A stretch of DNA of 64,000 bases from Candidatus Woesearchaeota archaeon (GTDB taxonomy: Archaea > Nanobdellota > Nanobdellia > Woesearchaeales > UBA10216): NCBI GenBank assembly GCA_016192915.1, contig JACPTF010000002.1, positions 67,530 to 131,529 of the forward strand, written 5' to 3'. The notes under the pieces are model-generated. The model had not been told where the DNA came from. It was given only the letters and a program-made list of their open reading frames with translations, and searched no databases. The translations under genes were made by a program, and so were the position numbers. Positions within the stretch are counted from its first letter, which is position 1, and each line of letters starts with the position of its first letter. Below, piece after piece: positions 33,769 through 44,170 of the stretch.

Positions 33769-34590
33769 ATGAGTTTTAACCAGGAGGTTAAAATGACGGA
33801 GATTGAAGTCATAAAGGCGGACAAGAAAAACAACAGGCTCACACTGCTAATCAGGAAATCAAACGCACCATTCGTAAACGCAGTAAGAAGGGCAATAGTG
33901 GAAAGCGTGCCCACAATGGCAATAGAAGACGTTGAGATAAGAAAAAACAGCTCAGTGCTTTACGACGAGGTAATAGCGCACAGATTAGGGCTACTCCCGC
34001 TGACAACAGACTTAGAATCATACAACCTCCAGGCAAAATGCAAATGCAACGGCGAGGGATGCGCAAACTGCCAGGTCAAGCTCACGCTTGAGTCAGAAGG
34101 GCCGGGAATAATAACGGCCTCAGAGATAAAATCAAAAGATCCCAAAATAAAACCGGTATTCCCCGAAACACCAATAGTAAAGCTCCTCAAAGGGCAAAAG
34201 GTAGAAGTTGAAGCAACAGCAGTGCTCGGCACAGGAAAAGTCCACGCAAAATGGAGCCCGGCACACGTCTGGTATAAGCACAAGCCTATACTAAAAATTG
34301 GCAGCGTCAAAGAGCCCCAAAAAGTAGTGGATGCGTGCCCGCCCGGAGTCTTTGAAATCAAAAACGGGAAGCTGGTCGCGAATGAGGAAAAACTGCTCAC
34401 AACAGACCTTGCCGGGCTTGCCGAAGAAGCAAGCAATGGCGAAGTAAACATAGAAAAGTCGGATGACTTTGTAATGTTCATAGAAAGCTTCGGGCAGCTT
34501 GACTGCAAGGAAATACTGGAGCAGGCCACAAAATCGCTTGACGAAGACCTGGAAGAGTTCGAAAAACTCCTCAAAGAAACCAAAGAATAA
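33769..34590 (+). CDS. rpoD: DNA-directed RNA polymerase subunit D
   Basis: 273 aa; RpoD/Rpb3 fold with Cys cluster CKCNGEGCANCQ; cluster order. Confidence 0.9.
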   Translation: MSFNQEVKMTEIEVIKADKKNNRLTLLIRKSNAPFVNAVRRAIVESVPTMAIEDVEIRKNSSVLYDEVIAHRLGLLPLTTDLESYNLQAKCKCNGEGCANCQVKLTLESEGPGIITASEIKSKDPKIKPVFPETPIVKLLKGQKVEVEATAVLGTGKVHAKWSPAHVWYKHKPILKIGSVKEPQKVVDACPPGVFEIKNGKLVANEEKLLTTDLAGLAEEASNGEVNIEKSDDFVMFIESFGQLDCKEILEQATKSLDEDLEEFEKLLKETKE

Positions 34591-34644
34591 GCATTTGCAC
34601 TCACTCCTCACAGCGAGGGTTGGGGTTGATAAGGGGGCGTAGAG

Positions 34645-34694
34645 CACAATTCCGCCAAGGCGGAATGTGCAATCGGGTTTTCCCCGATTTGCAC
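34645..34694. repeat. Modular palindromic repeat element, copy 3, between rpoD and tRNA-Leu
   Basis: Perfect hairpin cacaattccgcc-aag-gcggaatgtg, then caatcggg-ttttc-cccgatttg; same two units as the in-frame copy inside gatA. Confidence 0.8.
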
Positions 34695-34701
34695 CCTTAT
34701 A

Positions 34702-34841
34702 GCGGGGGTGGCAGAGCCTGGTCAAATGCGCTACCTTGAGGTGACCCTTTTTGGAACAAAAAGGTTCAATCCAAAAAAGTTGAAGGGTTGCGAACGGGTA
34801 GTCCCTTAGTGGGTGCGCGTGTTCGAATCACGTCCCCCGCA
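34702..34841 (+). tRNA. tRNA-Leu(GAG) with 54-nt intron at the canonical 37/38 position
   Basis: Manual fold: acceptor GCGGGGG/CCCCCGC (7 bp), D-arm GCAG...AUGC, anticodon stem CUACC/GGUAG with loop UUGAGG (anticodon GAG), long variable arm UCCCUUAGUGGGUGC, T-arm GCGUG-UUCGAAU-CACGU, discriminator A; CCA not encoded; intron 34742-34795. Confidence 0.8.
34742..34778 (+). repeat. Second conserved motif, copy b, inside the tRNA-Leu intron
   Basis: tgaccctttttggaacaaaaaggttcaatccaaaaaa; same hairpin stem (cctttt/aaaagg) and ttcaatccaaaaa tail as copies a and c. Confidence 0.7.
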
Positions 34842-34863
34842 CTCATAATAAAAGTGAGAAACG

Positions 34864-35214
34864 ATGGTAAAACCTGATTCACAAAGGCACACGGCAATAA
34901 TTGCCATAAAAACTACCGAAGGGGAAGACCTCGCGGCTGTTGTAAAGGCGGAAGCGCTGAAACTGAGAAGGCATGCAGGTTTAAGGCACAAGCCTCTCTG
35001 GCACAGCGGAAACTACATTGTGCTTAGAGCAAGCAGAAATTATGCGCTTGAAATTGTCGCGGCACAAACGCAAGAAGCTGGAGTTGTGAGGCTGACAATC
35101 AACAGCACAGGAACTGGTGCAATGCCGAAGCATGTTACAGACACCTTGCGGAAACAAGGCTACACGCCATTAGCCAAACAACATGTGCAGTTAGATGCAC
35201 TGTACAGACTATGA
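34864..35214 (+). CDS. Hypothetical small protein (weak resemblance to RNase P Pop5-like fold)
   Basis: 116 aa; host-like GC; pattern TAIIAIK..., LWHSGNYIVLRASRNYALEIVAA, VRLTINSTGTG loosely parallels Pop5 blocks; not verifiable here. Confidence 0.35.
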   Translation: MVKPDSQRHTAIIAIKTTEGEDLAAVVKAEALKLRRHAGLRHKPLWHSGNYIVLRASRNYALEIVAAQTQEAGVVRLTINSTGTGAMPKHVTDTLRKQGYTPLAKQHVQLDALYRL

Positions 35215-35218
35215 TAAG

Positions 35219-35578
35219 ATGAGAACCGGACCAACAAACATAAACCTGAAGAGCCTGATAGGCGAGCTCAGGAAGAAGGCCTATGCAGAGAACTCACCGC
35301 TACTTGCAAGAATAGCAGAGGACCTTGAGAAGTCAACAAGGCAGAGAAGGGCTGTTAACCTTTCCAAGATAAGCAGGTATGCCAAGAAGGGAGAGCTGGT
35401 TGTAGTCCCTGGAAAAGTGCTGGCGGCAGGAGAGCTGAACCAGAGCTTAACAATAGCCGCCTGGAAGTTTTCTGAACAGGCCCTCGATAAGATATCAAAG
35501 GCAAACGCCAAGGCAATAACAATCAATGATCTTATGAAGAACAGGGTAAAAAACACGGCAGTGAGGATAATAGGCTGA
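35219..35578 (+). CDS. rpl18e: Ribosomal protein L18e
   Basis: Start MRTGPTNINL; the ORF-track start at 35195 is an upstream extension; rpoD-L18e-L13-S9-rpoN order. Confidence 0.8.
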   Translation: MRTGPTNINLKSLIGELRKKAYAENSPLLARIAEDLEKSTRQRRAVNLSKISRYAKKGELVVVPGKVLAAGELNQSLTIAAWKFSEQALDKISKANAKAITINDLMKNRVKNTAVRIIG

Positions 35579-35596
35579 AAGATAAAGTGATAAAAA

Positions 35597-36016
35597 ATGG
35601 CCATAATTGACGCAACAAACATGATCCTTGGAAGGCTCGCCACACAGGCAGCCAAGCAGGCACTCAAAGGGGAGGAAGTTACGGTCGTGAACTGCGAAAA
35701 GGCCGTCGTGACGGGAAACAAGGAAAACATATATGAAAACTACATGAAAAAGTTTGATGTAGGGCAGGTAAACCAGGGGCCGTACTTCCCGAAAAGGCCA
35801 GACATGCTCGTAAGAAGAACAATAAGGGGAATGCTGCCTAGAAAAAAGCCAAGGGGAAGGTCTGCATTCGAAAGGGTAAAATGCTACGTAGGCATGCCAC
35901 AGGGTATAAAGGCGGAAGACGCCAAAATAGTGCCTGGGGCAAGCATAGAAAAGGCAAAAAAAGTGCCATTCATGACTGTTAGCCAGTTATGCAAGCACAT
36001 AGGCTACAAAGGGTAA
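35597..36016 (+). CDS. rpl13: Ribosomal protein L13
   Basis: 139 aa; L13 family. Confidence 0.9.
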   Translation: MAIIDATNMILGRLATQAAKQALKGEEVTVVNCEKAVVTGNKENIYENYMKKFDVGQVNQGPYFPKRPDMLVRRTIRGMLPRKKPRGRSAFERVKCYVGMPQGIKAEDAKIVPGASIEKAKKVPFMTVSQLCKHIGYKG

Positions 36017-36021
36017 CAAAA

Positions 36022-36432
36022 ATGACAGCAAGCAAGGTTATAGTTGTCTCAGGAAAAAGGAAAAGCGCCATAGCAAGGGCAATAGTAAGGCCTGGCAGCG
36101 GAAAGGTCACTGTAAACGGCAAGATGCTCGACTATTATGAGCCAGCTATTGCAAGAATGAAGCTTCAGGAGCCAATCCTGCTTGCAGGAGATGGCGCTGC
36201 AAAGGTTGACGTAGAAATTAACGTAAGAGGAGGGGGCGTGATGGGCCAGGCAGAGGCAGCAAGGCTAGCCATGGCAAAAGGCGTGGTGGCCTTCCTTAGG
36301 GACAAAAAGCTTGAGAAGGCATTCCTCGAGTATGACAGGCACTTGCTTGTTGCCGACGTAAGAAGGAAAGAAGTCAGGAAGCCGAACAGGCACGGAAAAG
36401 CCAGGGCAGCGGTTCAGAAAAGTTATAGATAA
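36022..36432 (+). CDS. rps9: Ribosomal protein S9
   Basis: Start MTASKVIVVSGKRKSAIA...; ends ...QKSYR as in S9. Confidence 0.9.
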   Translation: MTASKVIVVSGKRKSAIARAIVRPGSGKVTVNGKMLDYYEPAIARMKLQEPILLAGDGAAKVDVEINVRGGGVMGQAEAARLAMAKGVVAFLRDKKLEKAFLEYDRHLLVADVRRKEVRKPNRHGKARAAVQKSYR

Positions 36433-37856
36433 TTTTCAATTTTTTGGAATTCTTCCGTATTTTTAATTTCTCACTGGACACTGGACATGTGCCCGGCGAG
36501 GGTATTTAAGCTAGTTCTGCTGCGTGTTTCAGAGATCAGAAAAATGGATAAAAAAGATACCAGAGTTGTGTTAAAACCTGAATTCCAGAGAGAATTGTTT
36601 ACAAAGCTATTGAAAACTTATGCAAGAATGAAACTTGCGAAACTTATAGGCATATCTTCAGCAATGCTATACCACTACAAGAATTTGAGAGTTAGGAACA
36701 TTTCTCTTGCTACACTTGAAAGAGGGGCTATGCTTCTCGAAATAGAAATGAACAAAATAGAGGGATATATACTCAACACATATTCATTTAAAGAGAGTGT
36801 TCAAGATATTATGAAAGAAGGAAGTGCTAAACGCCATCAGCTACTAAAAGATTTTAGGAACGAAATTCCTAAAATTTCGGAAATTGCCTCAAATGGGCAG
36901 TTAGATGTTGAGAAATGGTTCTTAGCCTATAAGAAGCTCATAGATTTTGGGGCAAGGCAGTTTACTAAAATAAGAGAAAAGGGTAATCGGCTGCTGCTTG
37001 AATATACAAATTTCGCCAATGGCAAGCAAAAGGCGTTCAAAACCGTTTTACCGCGAAAAATAGAGGTTGATAGAGATTTTCTCTACTTCTTTGGACTTTG
37101 GCTTGGTGACAAGGCCGGAGGGGGAAGGATTGGTGTAGTAAACAAAGAACCTAAAATTAATTTTGAAACTTCAAAATTATTGCAAAAGTATCGCCAAACC
37201 CCGTTTTTCGAATTATATGTGGATAGAAATGTAGAGATTCCAAAAACAATCAAGGTAGATAAAATAACAAAAAAAGGGCTGACGGGTTGGGCCATTAGTG
37301 TTTATTCTGTCAATAGTATCTTTAAACGCTTTTTTGAATATTTAGAAGCTAATTTGGATGAATTTCTAAATCTTATGCCAAATAAAGCTGTGGTATTTGC
37401 TGGACTGTTTGATGCAGAGGGCAATATACTTTTAGAAGATAAATGTTTTAGGTGGGCTTGTAAAGATAAAGTAAAGATAGAAATTTACAAAAAGCATCTT
37501 TTTGAGATGGGGCTTTATAGAAGGTTTGATGGTGGCAATTTGGTTGGTTACGACCTTAATAAGTTCAGAAGTTTAGTGTTTCCTCATTTAAGGCATCCTA
37601 AGAAAATAAATGCGTGTAATTTGCTCTTTTTTAAACAAGGAAATCTTGAAGACCGGTTTATGCGGATTTTAGAGTTCATTCAGGCCAGACCTGGTCAAAC
37701 AAACCGAGAGGTGGCAAAAGCTTTAAAAAGAGCCAAGCGTTCCTCCCAGTTAAAATTTTTGGAGTACTTGGACTTGATTAAGATGACCGATTATCCTAAA
37801 AGAATGTTTATCACTGAAAAAGGTTTGGCTTCTCTTAGCCAAGGGGGCAAGGACAT
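36433..37856 (+). mobile_element. Low-GC (about 36-38%) island carrying a free-standing LAGLIDADG homing-endonuclease-like gene, inserted between rps9 and rpoN
   Basis: Abrupt drop from about 50% GC exactly at the rps9 stop; the island ends at the rpoN start codon; interrupts an otherwise universally conserved archaeal gene order. Confidence 0.7.
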
Positions 37857-37860
37857 ATGA
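36544..37860 (+). CDS. Free-standing double-motif LAGLIDADG homing endonuclease-like protein with flanking HTH/winged-helix domains
   Basis: Two LAGLIDADG blocks (FFGLWLGDKAGGG and VFAGLFDAEGN) about 100 aa apart; N-terminal HTH-like region; AT-rich codon usage; start chosen at MDKKDTR (36544). Confidence 0.7.
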   Translation: MDKKDTRVVLKPEFQRELFTKLLKTYARMKLAKLIGISSAMLYHYKNLRVRNISLATLERGAMLLEIEMNKIEGYILNTYSFKESVQDIMKEGSAKRHQLLKDFRNEIPKISEIASNGQLDVEKWFLAYKKLIDFGARQFTKIREKGNRLLLEYTNFANGKQKAFKTVLPRKIEVDRDFLYFFGLWLGDKAGGGRIGVVNKEPKINFETSKLLQKYRQTPFFELYVDRNVEIPKTIKVDKITKKGLTGWAISVYSVNSIFKRFFEYLEANLDEFLNLMPNKAVVFAGLFDAEGNILLEDKCFRWACKDKVKIEIYKKHLFEMGLYRRFDGGNLVGYDLNKFRSLVFPHLRHPKKINACNLLFFKQGNLEDRFMRILEFIQARPGQTNREVAKALKRAKRSSQLKFLEYLDLIKMTDYPKRMFITEKGLASLSQGGKDI

Positions 37861-38055
37861 TCATACCAGTCCGTTGTTTTTAGCTGCGGAAAACCAGTCG
37901 CGCAGTTTTGGGAGCAGTTTAAGGAAAGGGTTGCCAAGGGAGAAAACGGCAAGAAGGTGCTGGACGAGCTTGGCATGGAAAGGTACTGCTGCAGGGCGCT
38001 GTTCCTGGGGCATGTTGACCTGACAGACATCGCTGCAGAGTTCAAGAAGGCGTAA
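37857..38055 (+). pseudogene. rpoN: RNA polymerase subunit N gene interrupted by a +1 frameshift in a T5 run (37877-37881)
   Basis: ATG-ATC-ATA-CCA-GTC-CGT-TGT-TTT then TAG (MIIPVRCF*). Removing one T gives ...CFSCGKPVAQFWEQFKERVAKGENGKKVLDELGMERYCCRALFLGHVDLTDIAAEFKKA*, a full RpoN. Confidence 0.7.
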
Positions 38056-38452
38056 ACGGGGGTTTGATTAAAAAGGCACAAGCTGGAACGCCATTTTTTG
38101 GGTGAACTTGTGGTTTTCGCAGACAGGCCAGCTTACCTGGCCTGCCACCCTGTTTCAGAAGAGTGGGTGACTTATTTCGAACCAAACGATAGCTACTGGG
38201 ATTCTAACTTCACAAAAAGGTGGGAACAGTTTTGAATAGAAACGGTCAATGAACTGGCTGGACTTGTAGCTTCCGCCCCAGAAGAAAGGGAAGCCATCGT
38301 GGCAACAGTCGAAAACACATTCGGGCTCTCATGGTATGGGCAGCCGCCACAAACCAACCCTGCGGCGGGAAAAGCAGCCGAAGTACTATACAATGCAATC
38401 AAAGTCGTAGCGCTAAGCAAAGTTTAAAAACACTCAGCAGTTCTATCGAGCC

Positions 38453-41164
38453 ATGGAAGACGAAGCCAGAATAGACTACAACAAGATAGCCCAAAAGTGG
38501 CAGAAGAAATGGGCAGATTCTGGAATATTCAAGGTAAAGGAAGACGCTAAGAAGAAGAAATTTTTTCTGTTGGAGATGTTTCCGTACCCGTCGGGAAGCG
38601 GGCTTCACATGGGCCACGTTCGAAACTACGCTATTGGCGACTGCTACGCCAGATACAAAAGAATGAGGGGATTTAACGTTCTTTACCCTATGGGTTATGA
38701 TGCTTTCGGGCTGCCGGCAGAAAATGCGGCCATAAAAAACAAGGTTAACCCGAAAAAGTGGACAGAAGAAAACATGGCCCTTATGAAGTCGCAGCAGAAG
38801 CTGCTCGGGCTAAGCTACGACTGGGACAGGGAACTTGCAACCTGCTATCCAGAATATTACAAATGGAACCAGTGGATATTCCTCAAGATGCTGGAGAAAG
38901 GGCTTGCCTACAAGAAAAAGGCTGCTGCAAACTGGTGTCCGAGCTGCAAAACAGTACTTGCCAATGAACAAGTGCACGAGGGAACATGCTGGAGATGCCA
39001 CAGCCCTGTTGAGCAGAAAGAACTTGAGCAGTGGTTCCTAAAAATAACAGCATACGCAGACCAGCTCCTTAACGACCTTGACAAGCTTGGAAACTGGCCT
39101 GAACGGGTAAAGGTAATGCAGAAGAACTGGATTGGAAAGAGCGAGGGCGTGGAGATATTCTTTCCTGTTGACGGGATGAAAAAGGCAATGCCTACTTTTA
39201 CAACAAGGCCTGACACAATATTCTCTGTAACTTTTGTTGTTTTGGCACCAGAACATTCGCTTGTCAGCGAACTCACAAAGGGCACGAAACATGAAAAAGA
39301 GGTTGCAGAATTCGTGAAAAGCGCTATAAGGGAAAGCACAATTGACAGATTGAATGAAGAGAAGGAAAAGAAAGGTGTGTTCACAGGGCGTTACGCCATT
39401 AACCCTGCCTCAAAGGAAAAAATACCAATTTGGGTTGCAAACTTTGCGGTAATGGAATACGGTACAGGAGCAGTAATGTGTGATGCCCACGACAAAAGGG
39501 ACTTTAAATTTGCAAAGAAGTATGGAATACCACTCAAAATTGTAATAAGGCCTGCTGACAAGCCTGATTTTAGCGTCGAACAGCTTTCAGAGGCTTATAC
39601 CGAAGCTGGCATAATGATTAATTCTGACCAGTTTAACGGTCAGACAAATGCTGAAGCGTTACCGAAGATTGCAGAGTGGCTTGTGAAAAATAAGAATGCT
39701 AAGAAGGTTACAAACTACAAGCTCCGCGACTGGCTCATATCAAGGCAAAGGTATTGGGGCACGCCAATCCCTATCATATACTGCAAAAAATGCGGAATAG
39801 TGCCTGTGCCTGAAAAAGAGCTGCCGGTTATGCTTCCGGAGCCTGAAAAGGCAAAGTTTACTGGCGAAGGCAATCCTCTCAACAGCTGCGGCGAGTTTGT
39901 TAACGTAAAGTGCCCAAAGTGCAAGGCTAACGCAAGGAGAGAAACGGACACGATGGACACTTTTGTAGACAGCTCGTGGTATTTCCTCCGTTATTGCAGC
40001 AACAAAGAACAGAAAATGCCGTTTGACAAAAAGGCAGCAGAATATTGGATGCCTGTAGACCAGTACATTGGCGGGATAGAGCACGCTGTGATGCATCTTC
40101 TTTACGCGAGGTTTTTCACGAAGGTGCTAAGGGACTTTAAGCTGGTTGATGTAGCTGAGCCTTTCAGCAACCTGCTATGCCAGGGAATGGTTCTAAAAGA
40201 TGGGGCGGTCATGAGCAAGAGCCGCGGCAATGTTGTTGACCCGAGGGAAATAATTTCCAAATACGGGCCTGACACGGCAAGGATGTTCATACTGTTCATG
40301 GCCATGCCTGAAAAAGAGCTCGAGTGGTCGGACAAGGGTGTGGAGGGGAGTTTTAGACTGCTAAGGAAGATTTATTCCCTGGCAACGAAGAAGTTGAGTT
40401 ACGGCAGCGGGAAAGAGCTGACATCCAAAGATAAGCAAGTTCTGAGCAAGACACACTCGACGATAAAGAAAACAACAGAGCTTGTTGAGGAATTCCGGCT
40501 GAATGCCGCAATAGGGGCTGTTATAGAGATGGTAAACGTGCTTTCAAAATACGGCGATGGGCAGGTTAATAAGCAAGTTTACAGTGAAGCCCTTAAAAAT
40601 CTTACACTGCTCATTTCGCCGTTTGCACCGCACATTGCTGAGGAGCTGTGGGAGATTCAAGGCCGCAAAGGATTCATATCATTGCAGAGCTGGCCAGAAT
40701 ACGAAGAAGAGAAAATAGACAAAGAAGCGGAAGCAATGGAACAGCTTTTTCACACAACGCTTTCGGATTTTGAGACTGTGTTGCAGCTGGCGAGGATAGA
40801 AAAACCAAAAGAAGTTGTGCTCGTTGTCGCGCCAAGCTGGAAATACGAGCTGGTGAGGATTTTGAAAGAGGAGCTGACAAAGACAAGAGACCAAAGGGCG
40901 CTCATAAGCGCATGCCTTGCGGAAAAGGACCTGAAGCCACACGGAGAGGAAGTAGCCAAGATAGTGCAGGCAGTGCTGAAGGACCCGGCGAAGCTGCCAG
41001 AAACAGTAATTGACAGGGAAAAGGAGCTTGAGACTTACAATTCAGCAAAGGATGAGATTGAAAAGGATTACAAGGCCAAGGTAGTTATTTCCGATGCGGA
41101 CACGTCAAAAGAGCAGAAGGCAAGGCAGGCAATGCCCGGGAAGCCTGCAATAATAGTCAAATAA
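38453..41164 (+). CDS. leuS: Leucine--tRNA ligase (archaeal type)
   Basis: 903 aa; HMGH (HIGH-class) and KMSKS-like motifs; CP1 editing domain. Confidence 0.95.
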   Translation: MEDEARIDYNKIAQKWQKKWADSGIFKVKEDAKKKKFFLLEMFPYPSGSGLHMGHVRNYAIGDCYARYKRMRGFNVLYPMGYDAFGLPAENAAIKNKVNPKKWTEENMALMKSQQKLLGLSYDWDRELATCYPEYYKWNQWIFLKMLEKGLAYKKKAAANWCPSCKTVLANEQVHEGTCWRCHSPVEQKELEQWFLKITAYADQLLNDLDKLGNWPERVKVMQKNWIGKSEGVEIFFPVDGMKKAMPTFTTRPDTIFSVTFVVLAPEHSLVSELTKGTKHEKEVAEFVKSAIRESTIDRLNEEKEKKGVFTGRYAINPASKEKIPIWVANFAVMEYGTGAVMCDAHDKRDFKFAKKYGIPLKIVIRPADKPDFSVEQLSEAYTEAGIMINSDQFNGQTNAEALPKIAEWLVKNKNAKKVTNYKLRDWLISRQRYWGTPIPIIYCKKCGIVPVPEKELPVMLPEPEKAKFTGEGNPLNSCGEFVNVKCPKCKANARRETDTMDTFVDSSWYFLRYCSNKEQKMPFDKKAAEYWMPVDQYIGGIEHAVMHLLYARFFTKVLRDFKLVDVAEPFSNLLCQGMVLKDGAVMSKSRGNVVDPREIISKYGPDTARMFILFMAMPEKELEWSDKGVEGSFRLLRKIYSLATKKLSYGSGKELTSKDKQVLSKTHSTIKKTTELVEEFRLNAAIGAVIEMVNVLSKYGDGQVNKQVYSEALKNLTLLISPFAPHIAEELWEIQGRKGFISLQSWPEYEEEKIDKEAEAMEQLFHTTLSDFETVLQLARIEKPKEVVLVVAPSWKYELVRILKEELTKTRDQRALISACLAEKDLKPHGEEVAKIVQAVLKDPAKLPETVIDREKELETYNSAKDEIEKDYKAKVVISDADTSKEQKARQAMPGKPAIIVK

Positions 41165-43891: not shown

Positions 43892-44170
43892 AGCGGGAGA
43901 CGCGCCTGAAAGTTGGTAAGGCTTGAACCTTTCGGTTTGCTCCGCCATCGCTCCTCTCCGCTACCCTCCAAGCGCAAACACTTACGATTCGTGCTGCTTC
44001 CTTCCGGACCTGACACTTTGACCATAAATGCTAACCCTGCAGGACAGAGACTCAACGCTTTAGCAAAGGCCTACAGGCCAATACCAGACCGCCCCTCAAG
44101 CTTCGGTCCACCCATGAAGCCCGTATGGTGCAACAGCGCAGGGCTGGCGCGCCAACCTAGTCTCCCGGCG
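43892..44170 (-). ncRNA. ffs: Signal recognition particle RNA (7S/SRP RNA)
   Basis: Minus strand carries GUCAGGUCCGGAAGGAAGCAGC (conserved helix-8 SRP54-binding motif) at 43994-44015. 5' GCCGGGAGAC pairs with 3' GUCUCCCGC (terminal helix 5). TATA-like aacctttaaa about 25 nt upstream; T-run downstream; no protein gene on this strand. Confidence 0.8.

Follow-up and report, generated by a model that had tools for sequence, protein, structure and literature searches.

A LAGLIDADG endonuclease-like gene at a frame-broken rpoN in a Woesearchaeota genome: a putative homing cassette with +1 recoding

RpoN (Rpo10/Rpb10) is an essential and universally conserved subunit of RNA polymerase. How, then, can an archaeon keep its rpoN gene in two reading frames, and does the break have anything to do with the LAGLIDADG homing-endonuclease-like gene that lies directly in front of it? 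Both features occur in a 64,000-nt stretch (hereafter the window) of a Candidatus Woesearchaeota genome (assembly GCA_016192915.1, contig JACPTF010000002.1, positions 67,530 to 131,529). A first-pass annotation, made from the sequence alone, had described the endonuclease-like gene as a recent insertion of low G+C content (GC) between rps9 and rpoN and had suspected that the insertion and the frameshift were linked. By comparing the locus with its relatives, we arrive at the reading, which we consider probable on balance, that a mobile LAGLIDADG homing cassette resides within rpoN and that RpoN is made by a programmed +1 frameshift.

The endonuclease-like gene and its empty site

The gene order on the plus strand is rps11, rpoD, L18e, L13, rps9, a spacer of about 112 nt, an open reading frame (ORF) of 438 aa, rpoN, and leuS from 38453 onwards (Table 1). 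The GC is 35.7% in the ORF (36544-37860) and 39% in the spacer (36433-36543), compared to 49.5% in rps9, 52% in rpoN and 47.9% in the entire window. The low-GC stretch extends, as first annotated, from just past the rps9 stop (36430-36432) to the rpoN ATG (37857-37859), which shares bases with the TGA of the ORF (37858-37860) as ATGA. Read from the ATG at 36544, the product has the same sequence as P0001 (HYY73_00725); an alternative start at ATG 36487 is also open and would give a 457-aa reading.

The protein consists of an N-terminal Xre-type helix-turn-helix (HTH), a beta domain, a two-domain LAGLIDADG core and a C-terminal winged HTH. Both LAGLIDADG-type motifs claimed in the first-pass annotation are present, with D189 in the first (FFGLWLGDKAGGG) and E292 in the second. 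All 45 of the 45 aligned sequences share F182, G184, L185, W186, G188 and D189, and the segment from G287 to G293 is likewise invariant in them. In the locus-derived proteins, the GD of motif 1 is present in 44/44, and motif 2 reads DAEGN in 43 and DADGN in one. The window protein had no LAGLIDADG match in Pfam even at E<=1, only sub-threshold HTH matches in Pfam and NCBIfam, and nothing in a phmmer search against the PDB. Its relatives were matched by PF14528 in 23 of 45 cases (best E 2.5e-7), and the family profile run against PDB sequences reached PI-SceI weakly (E=0.25). The core has two alpha-beta-beta-alpha-beta-beta-alpha domains that pack via two LAGLIDADG helices. By fold and motifs, the ORF product is a free-standing LAGLIDADG endonuclease-like protein, as first annotated. 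Its endonuclease activity is predicted, and the positions of the relics and junctions described below make rpoN near codon 8/9 the candidate target.

A search with the repaired RpoN as query returned 2392 intact RpoNs, the best of which was 94% identical. Comparison of the rps9-rpoN junction in relatives, the check proposed at first annotation, defined the empty site in locus L053 (GCA_016188155.1), which shares the gene order of the window, is 94% identical to it at the nucleotide level throughout the operon, lacks the endonuclease gene, and has 7 nt between the rps9 stop and an unshifted rpoN. Mismatches between the two loci are concentrated next to the gene: 13 in the last 30 nt of rps9 against 21 in the 414 nt before (Fisher p=1.4e-8), and 12 in the first 36 nt of rpoN against 9 in the 162 nt after (p=2e-5). 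Relative to this empty site, then, the segment is an insertion as far as the comparison reaches, and we find presence and absence at one conserved site together with co-conversion of the flanks. Because the divergent tract spans the last 30 nt of rps9 to nt 36 of rpoN, the extra T of rpoN came with the gene; the gene and the recoded insertion are adjacent, and the suspected link between insertion and frameshift is borne out by this and by the co-occurrence of the extra T with the gene family. The cassette would have entered the window by recombination, replacing about 30 nt at the end of rps9 and about 36 nt at the beginning of rpoN. The nearest gene-less RpoNs read RC[YF]AC and the window has the cassette-type RCFSC; the event was therefore probably a gain in the lineage of the window and not a loss in L053. 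GC could not decide between gain and loss for this pair of loci, and the direction rests on the RC[YF]AC signature.

Homologues occupy the identical site in all assessable loci, which belong to Woese-, Pace-, Nano-, Aenigmat- and Hadarchaeota metagenome-assembled genomes (MAGs), with the Hadarchaeota label on two of the gene-bearing MAGs. L18e-L13-rps9 lies upstream of the homologue in every locus reaching far enough, and rpoN lies directly downstream in 49 of the 53 sources, the other four stopping at contig edges. The GC of the gene is lower than that of L13 plus S9 in 22/22 loci (means of 29% and 42%), and, at 75-79% marker identity, hosts that carry the gene are interspersed with hosts that lack it. 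The claim of a recent insertion is supported for this genome by comparison with L053 and does not extend to the family, which is old and widespread at the site. In the first-pass annotation, an orthologue at the same place elsewhere was to count against a recent insertion. Such orthologues exist, yet homing yields the same pattern, so that mobility is not refuted by them, and the empty site of L053 overturned the argument from the common position in distant genomes.

The broken frame of rpoN

In the zero frame, positions 37857-37883 read ATG ATC ATA CCA GTC CGT TGT TTT TAG. The +1 frameshift had been placed 21 nt into rpoN; the frameshift itself stands, and eight codons (24 nt) precede the break. 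The extra base belongs to the T5 run at 37877-37881, located as first annotated. After repair, the window RpoN is 94% identical to the intact RpoN P0121, and the window contains a single rpoN match.

The break is not peculiar to this genome. We identified 22 distinct rpoN alleles, all next to the gene, that are broken at exactly codon 8/9. Downstream of the site, every one of them stays open for 57-58 codons to the usual stop and keeps C10, C44 and C45; upstream, MIIP[VI]RC is kept, and the zinc-ligand cysteine C7 sits in frame ahead of the shift. Differences at codon positions 1, 2 and 3 number 244, 83 and 551 before the site and 4220, 2278 and 7259 after it, which we read as purifying selection in both frames. 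Instead of the one-off scar of cleavage and repair imagined at first, the locus appears to hold a conserved recoding site. It might be argued that the break is a homopolymer sequencing error, or that the insertion turned rpoN into a pseudogene, since the extra base in the window does fall within a T5 run and gene callers skip rpoN. However, the break recurs at this position in 22 alleles that come from different projects and assemblers, several of them outside homopolymers; the bodies are intact and under purifying selection, and the window has a single rpoN match. The comparative data already contradict this explanation, and its chance is negligible.

The site occurs as TGT TTT TAG C, TGT CTT TAG C, TGT ATT TAG C, TGT GTT TAG C and TGT TGG TAG C. 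Reassignment of UAG was ruled out, as TAG is an ordinary stop here that ends 12 of the 65 long ORFs in the window, and the zero frame past the UAG does not encode RpoN. A read-through fusion of endonuclease and RpoN was ruled out as well, because two or three consecutive stops lie upstream in the body frame in several loci. The simplest reading is that full-length RpoN arises by +1 ribosomal frameshifting at UUU-UAG-C. Judging from the conservation, UAG would be slow in the A site and the P-site tRNA would re-pair on UUU; alternatively, the Ser-tRNA may bind AGC out of frame. The frame could also be corrected by transcriptional slippage, by RNA editing or by a tRNA that reads a quadruplet (UAGC or UUUU). 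The retention of UAGC in 19 of the 22 shifted alleles, together with TGG TAG C, which does not allow P-site re-pairing, would suit out-of-frame or four-base decoding. Slippage of the polymerase is excluded by shift contexts with T-runs of only 1-3; moreover, three alleles have no UAG, and no unusual tRNA was seen, though tRNA detection was poor here. We regard such corrections as very improbable. When viral contigs were scanned for the pattern of the shift site, 0 matches were obtained, and in the literature searched on rpoN/Rpo10 frameshifts, frameshifting in DPANN and LAGLIDADG genes in DPANN we found no earlier description of the rpoN frameshift or of the endonuclease family.

Junctions, linkage and rival readings of the cassette

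Where the element sits was revealed by other loci. At least 14 gene-bearing loci, belonging to both clades described below and to an outgroup (L007, L016, L017, L019, L021, L023, L025, L028, L037, L039, L044, L048 and L139, and the N-terminus of P0036), have a relic of rpoN codons 1-8 ("MIIPIRCF"-type) ahead of the gene. Typical relics read ATG ATA ATC CCA ATT AGA TGT TTC TAA, or encode MIIPVRCY followed by a stop, and the endonuclease ATG directly adjoins the relic in L025 and L139. The copies end at codon 8; the left junctions are TTY / TAA or TGA, and the right junction is NTT / T / AGC. Because the relics sit upstream of the gene, the element is located inside rpoN after codon 8, at the position of the frameshift, and not simply between rps9 and rpoN as first annotated. 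On this comparison, codons 1-8 in use are a second copy from the cassette and the native copy is orphaned; the cassette copy has RTC CGY where the relics and gene-less alleles mostly have ATH or GTH with AGA. The comparison thus places the element between RC[FY] and SCGK, with rpoN rebuilt by a Shine-Dalgarno sequence (SD), a start codon and replacement codons 1-8 that the cassette brings downstream of the endonuclease ORF. In the clade of the window, the rebuilt junction bears one extra T.

It had been proposed that the island provides expression signals for rpoN, and the 3' end of the gene indeed gives its SD and start. The SD, GG[AG]GGNAAGGA, is nearly invariant across the 22 frameshifted loci. 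In 13-14 loci of the window's subclade, a stem of 6-8 bp reaches as far as the first G of the SD and occurs in at least seven sequence versions; a hairpin abutting the SD is absent from the other subclade. The hairpin may make initiation on rpoN depend on translation of the ORF upstream. These signals belong to a module that is 93-100% identical at the nucleotide level in all three pairs of the window, L136 (GCA_053533775.1) and L138 and runs to the first 30 nt of rpoN. In the same pairs, the remainder of the gene is mostly 50-85% identical by block, apart from a few mosaic blocks, the gene as a whole about 75-78% and the host genes 73-81%. Positions 37075-37224, for example, are 90-97% identical to L138 and 70-83% to L136, and the neighbouring blocks are 50-70% identical to both. 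Such mosaic blocks suggest recombination among cassette alleles. For the endonuclease gene itself, a TATA box can be proposed in a block (36479-36518) that is 90% identical to L136; similar boxes, AAGTATATA or AAGTATTTAAG, follow the rpoN relic in other loci, and in clade B (see below) the relic is followed by a common TAA ATR GAA AAG TATATA, which likely includes a TATA box. Around the rpoN ATG, a 4-bp pairing GGAC/GTCC is possible (37851-37854 with 37869-37872; columns 30-33 and 50-53 of alignment A3). It covaries with GGAT/ATCC (10 C-G and 9 U-A, with 2 exceptions), which shared ancestry may explain.

The shifted frame is linked to the gene. In 44 distinct loci where the gene is present or partial, rpoN is shifted in 22, unshifted with a non-ATG first codon in 18 and unshifted with ATG in four; in 79 distinct loci without the gene, a sample biased toward unshifted alleles, none is shifted and 76 start with ATG. 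In a neighbour-joining tree of the endonucleases, one clade (A), that of the window, has a shifted rpoN in every assessable member but L032, where rpoN is unshifted beside a partial gene match (residues 93-436); an inactivated enzyme was rejected as the reason, since both motifs are intact. In the sister clade (B), rpoN is unshifted and its first codon, aligned with Met1 and preceded by a strong SD, is mostly ATT or ATC; 14 loci have no in-frame ATG, GTG or TTG start. Two distant members of the tree have canonical rpoN starts, and one Hadarchaeota member has a shifted rpoN. In a broader reading, recoding would take the form of a +1 frameshift at codon 8/9 in one clade and of ATT/ATC initiation in the other. 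In L095, the gene has decayed to a 49-aa 3' remnant that still overlaps the ATG, and the rpoN frame is unshifted (TGG TCA); relatives of L095 with intact genes (L009 and L013) have TGG T AGC.

Some minor features were seen in these loci. The ATT/ATC starts occur in L021, L023, L026, L028, L031, L033, L035, L038-L043, L049 and L051, with TAGGAG as the SD, and the upstream ORF of clade B stops 1 nt ahead of the rpoN start or a few nt within it. At RpoN position 5, five of the ATT/ATC-start alleles encode Cys or Pro; neither residue was seen there in three translated gene-less N-termini (L053, L095 and the L139 relic) or in the 15 gene-less RpoNs of alignment A2. In L095 (542-2147), two ORFs fill most of the place of the gene: one, on the minus strand, encodes a TrmB-like regulator of 250 aa, and the other is 249 aa long.

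How might such a cassette spread and persist? The enzyme would cut a gene-less rpoN near codon 8/9, and repair from a cassette-bearing allele would copy the cassette. The extra base is a plausible device of self-immunity, because the duplicated codons 1-8 would otherwise rebuild the target at the right junction; the relics define where element and target meet, and the T is found at precisely that point. That the extra T and the unusual RTC-CGY codons keep the resident allele uncuttable is the least certain step, and we offer it tentatively, as a possibility that falls somewhat short of likely. A more modest view accepts the homing cassette and takes the extra T as a hitch-hiking scar of the junction, tolerated at a shift-prone site and without any protective or regulatory role; for example, the duplication of codons 1-8 may have included the first T of the TAA of the element. 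The left (TTY / TAA or TGA) and right (NTT / T / AGC) junctions would permit the T to be a copied first base of the element, clade B lives with an unshifted junction, and so does L032 of clade A, beside a partial gene with both motifs intact. However, deletion of one base in the T-run would easily restore the frame, yet the shift lasts in 22 alleles whose endonucleases have diverged to about 40% identity, and it was kept while the site itself changed (UAG to CAG, CUC or CAC; UUU to CUU, AUU, GUU or UGG). In addition, about 180 nt around the site are conserved at synonymous sites, and the sole locus with a decayed gene has lost the shift. We consider the scar rather unlikely.

Several observations weigh against a homing cassette with programmed frameshifting. 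In three shifted alleles the site lacks a stop codon, TGC TTT preceding CAG, CTC or CAC there. Most alleles have UUU or CUU ahead of UAG C; re-pairing of the P-site tRNA in the +1 frame is limited to 2/3 positions for AUU and GUU and is poor or impossible for UGG UAG C (two alleles), and no one slippage rule covers all the shifted alleles. There is no SD-like stimulator just upstream of the shift codon, where the 12 nt read CCAGTCCGTTGT and are not purine-rich; the only SD lies about 24-34 nt upstream of the site and was assigned to initiation. RNAalifold found no conserved RNA structure at or downstream of the site (-3.6 kcal/mol). No relic was recognized in the window's own spacer, where the best match had 10 mismatches and was no better than shuffled sequence. 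The 80 metagenome rpoN loci were retained as the best tblastn matches over the full length, a choice that works against shifted alleles, and the class of shifted alleles without the gene was not fairly sampled by it. Because the right junction of clade B is apparently intact without the extra T, the insertion is not the sole way to coexist with the enzyme. Finally, the identity of the endonucleases follows that of host L13 plus S9 (r=0.70, slope 0.94), and the protein is as conserved as the ribosomal proteins, which fits long vertical residence or a host function equally as well as homing; the correlation speaks against a simple and frequent transfer over long range.

This last point leads to a further possibility, that the gene is a domesticated, mostly vertical resident whose LAGLIDADG-HTH product binds DNA or RNA and regulates the operon of ribosomal protein and RNA polymerase genes, similar to WhiA. 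The frameshift of clade A and the ATT/ATC start of clade B would then be attenuators or ties to translation of the upstream ORF. Such residence is at odds with a 94%-identical relative that has an empty site, sharp conversion boundaries, patchy presence in related hosts, mosaic identity within the gene, the decayed remnant in L095 and a consistently low GC. WhiA, a bacterial LAGLIDADG-HTH transcription factor, has a degenerate domain that lost the catalytic acidic residues, whereas both are invariant here, and the present family shows presence/absence polymorphism and conversion tracts, unlike WhiA. Domestication is unlikely in our opinion.

Table 1. Features of the rps9-rpoN region in the window (positions are those of the window)
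Feature	Positions	Strand	Remarks
rps9 (ribosomal protein S9)	36022..36432	+	Pfam Ribosomal_S9 E=5.5e-34; stop 36430-36432
Imported/converted tract relative to L053	36403..37893	+	mismatch density jumps at both ends; last 30 nt of rps9 (36403-36432), spacer, LAGLIDADG gene, first 36 nt of rpoN with the extra T
Putative archaeal TATA box (TATTTAAG) for the endonuclease gene	36503..36510	+	34 nt upstream of ATG; read from the sequence
LAGLIDADG homing-endonuclease-like gene, free-standing, 438 aa	36544..37860	+	
LAGLIDADG motif 1 (YFFGLWLGDKAGG)	37084..37122	+	putative catalytic D189 at 37108-37110
LAGLIDADG motif 2 (FAGLFDAEGN)	37396..37425	+	putative catalytic E292 at 37417-37419
Hyper-conserved module	37705..37884	+	last ~150 nt of endonuclease gene, SD, rpoN codons 1-8 with shift site
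Hairpin TTTGGCT-tctctt-AGCCAAG	37824..37843	+	abuts SD
rpoN SD, purine-rich (GGGGGCAAGGA)	37843..37853	+	inside endonuclease ORF, codons GGKD
rpoN	37857..38055	+	codons 1-8 in zero frame, remainder in +1 frame
rpoN codons 1-8 (MIIPVRCF), zero frame	37857..37880	+	cassette-borne copy; 100% identity with L136 and L138
Putative +1 frameshift site TTT TAG C	37878..37884	+	also right-hand junction of element and rpoN body
rpoN codons 9-65 and stop, +1 frame (SCGKPVAQ...EFKKA, stop)	37882..38055	+	AGC 37882 to TAA 38053-38055

Related systems, consequences and neighbouring sequences

Phage T4 offers the nearest parallel. There, a homing endonuclease split the topoisomerase gene, and the bypassed 50-nt insert of gene 60 was proposed as protection (PMC5009743). 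The mobA/gene 60 case is that of Bonocora et al. 2011 as reviewed in PMC5009743, and related elements figure in a preprint (bioRxiv 10.1101/2022.08.31.505936). As in T4, a free-standing homing endonuclease gene resides in an essential gene next to a coding insert that the ribosome must skip, endonuclease and recoding insert travel together, and protection of the carrier by the insert has been proposed. Unlike T4, the setting is an archaeal chromosome and not a phage, the enzyme is LAGLIDADG and not HNH, and a 1-nt insertion with a +1 shift takes the place of a 50-nt hop; the host gene is unsplit, its first eight codons being duplicated and the native copy orphaned, and protection here is our proposal.

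The site resembles that of prfB (release factor RF2, CUU UGA C) in its shift-prone NUU, in-frame stop and following C (several rpoN alleles have CUU UAG C), in its position early in the gene and in that an essential protein would need the slip. It differs in that rpoN has no SD-like stimulator 3 nt upstream, the stop is UAG, the factor is aRF1, and there is no obvious autoregulatory loop; some rpoN alleles have TGG TAG C or no stop, and the shift is tied to a mobile element instead of being universal in a lineage.

The enzyme is a single-chain, two-domain LAGLIDADG protein with both acidic motif residues, like I-DmoI, I-Tsp061I, PI-PfuI and PI-SceI, and, as with the archaeal intron and intein enzymes, its gene is inserted where the coding sequence of an information-processing gene is highly conserved. 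Unlike them, it has no intron, intein or splicing and carries an extra N-terminal HTH and a C-terminal winged HTH; function would be restored by duplication of the 5' end and recoding. In the intronless or collaborative homing of phages (Seg, Mob, F-CphI, I-TslI), protection comes from polymorphisms or a group I intron. There, too, the gene lies beside its target, flanking markers are co-converted and a difference in the target protects the resident allele; the candidate protector here is instead a frameshifting single-base insertion in an essential cellular gene. It is conceivable, though we are slightly more inclined to doubt than to accept it, that this is a third way besides introns and inteins for an endonuclease to live in an essential gene, through insertion a few codons into the ORF, a duplicate of the displaced 5' end and host recoding, with the T as self-immunity.

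If dozens of archaeal lineages need a slip at codon 8 of rpoN, the site would give archaeal ribosomes a natural +1 frameshift signal that is easy to test. Known archaeal cases are very few. One review lists only viral tail genes, Mg-chelatase and candidates in Sulfolobus (PMC5009743). If true, a selfish element has reshaped the expression of a core gene; rpoN would be the first archaeal core cellular gene with a conserved +1 programmed frameshift, and the element the first cellular counterpart of, and parallel to, the cassette of T4 gene 60. New long-target nucleases may also come from the enzyme family. There is a practical consequence for annotation. Gene calling yielded nothing at the site in five loci (L001, L004, L006 and L139 among them) and a 31-aa C-terminal fragment in L136 (6246-6341). 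Because of the frameshift, rpoN goes uncalled in many DPANN MAGs, and such genomes will appear to be without this marker gene; completeness estimates and marker-gene phylogenies are therefore affected.

Besides the cassette, a second difference between the window and L053 lies in the rpoN-leuS spacer (38056-38452), which had no BLAST match to L053 and holds only ORFs of 42-47 aa, and L053 has a 157-aa minus-strand gene there. Downstream, leuS (38453-41164, plus strand) encodes a leucyl-tRNA synthetase with a bacterial-type editing domain (Pfam tRNA-synt_1_2, E=1.6e-67), which is 78% identical to that of L053, compared to 94% for the ribosomal operon. Upstream, a 116-aa ORF (34864-35214, plus strand) in the gap between rpoD and L18e falls outside the canonical archaeal operon; L053 (117 aa) and L136 (129 aa) have a called gene at the same place, without a precomputed Pfam family. 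A 144-nt element (34702-34845, plus strand), 98-100% identical to L136, reads as a class II tRNA, probably tRNA-Leu(GAG) with an intron of about 57 nt at position 37/38. ARAGORN reported zero tRNAs across the 64-kb window, this element included, and Rfam, which was also silent on it, gave no match over 34500-38500. Two small hairpins, CACAATTCCGCC..GGCGGAATGTG and CAATCGGGG..CCCGATTTG, neighbour each other upstream of this element (34645-34694, plus strand); a copy with 84% identity lies in the rps9-to-endonuclease spacer of L136 (4504-4551). The sole Rfam family found in the window is the archaeal signal recognition particle RNA at 43894-44167 on the minus strand (RF01857, 126.7 bits).

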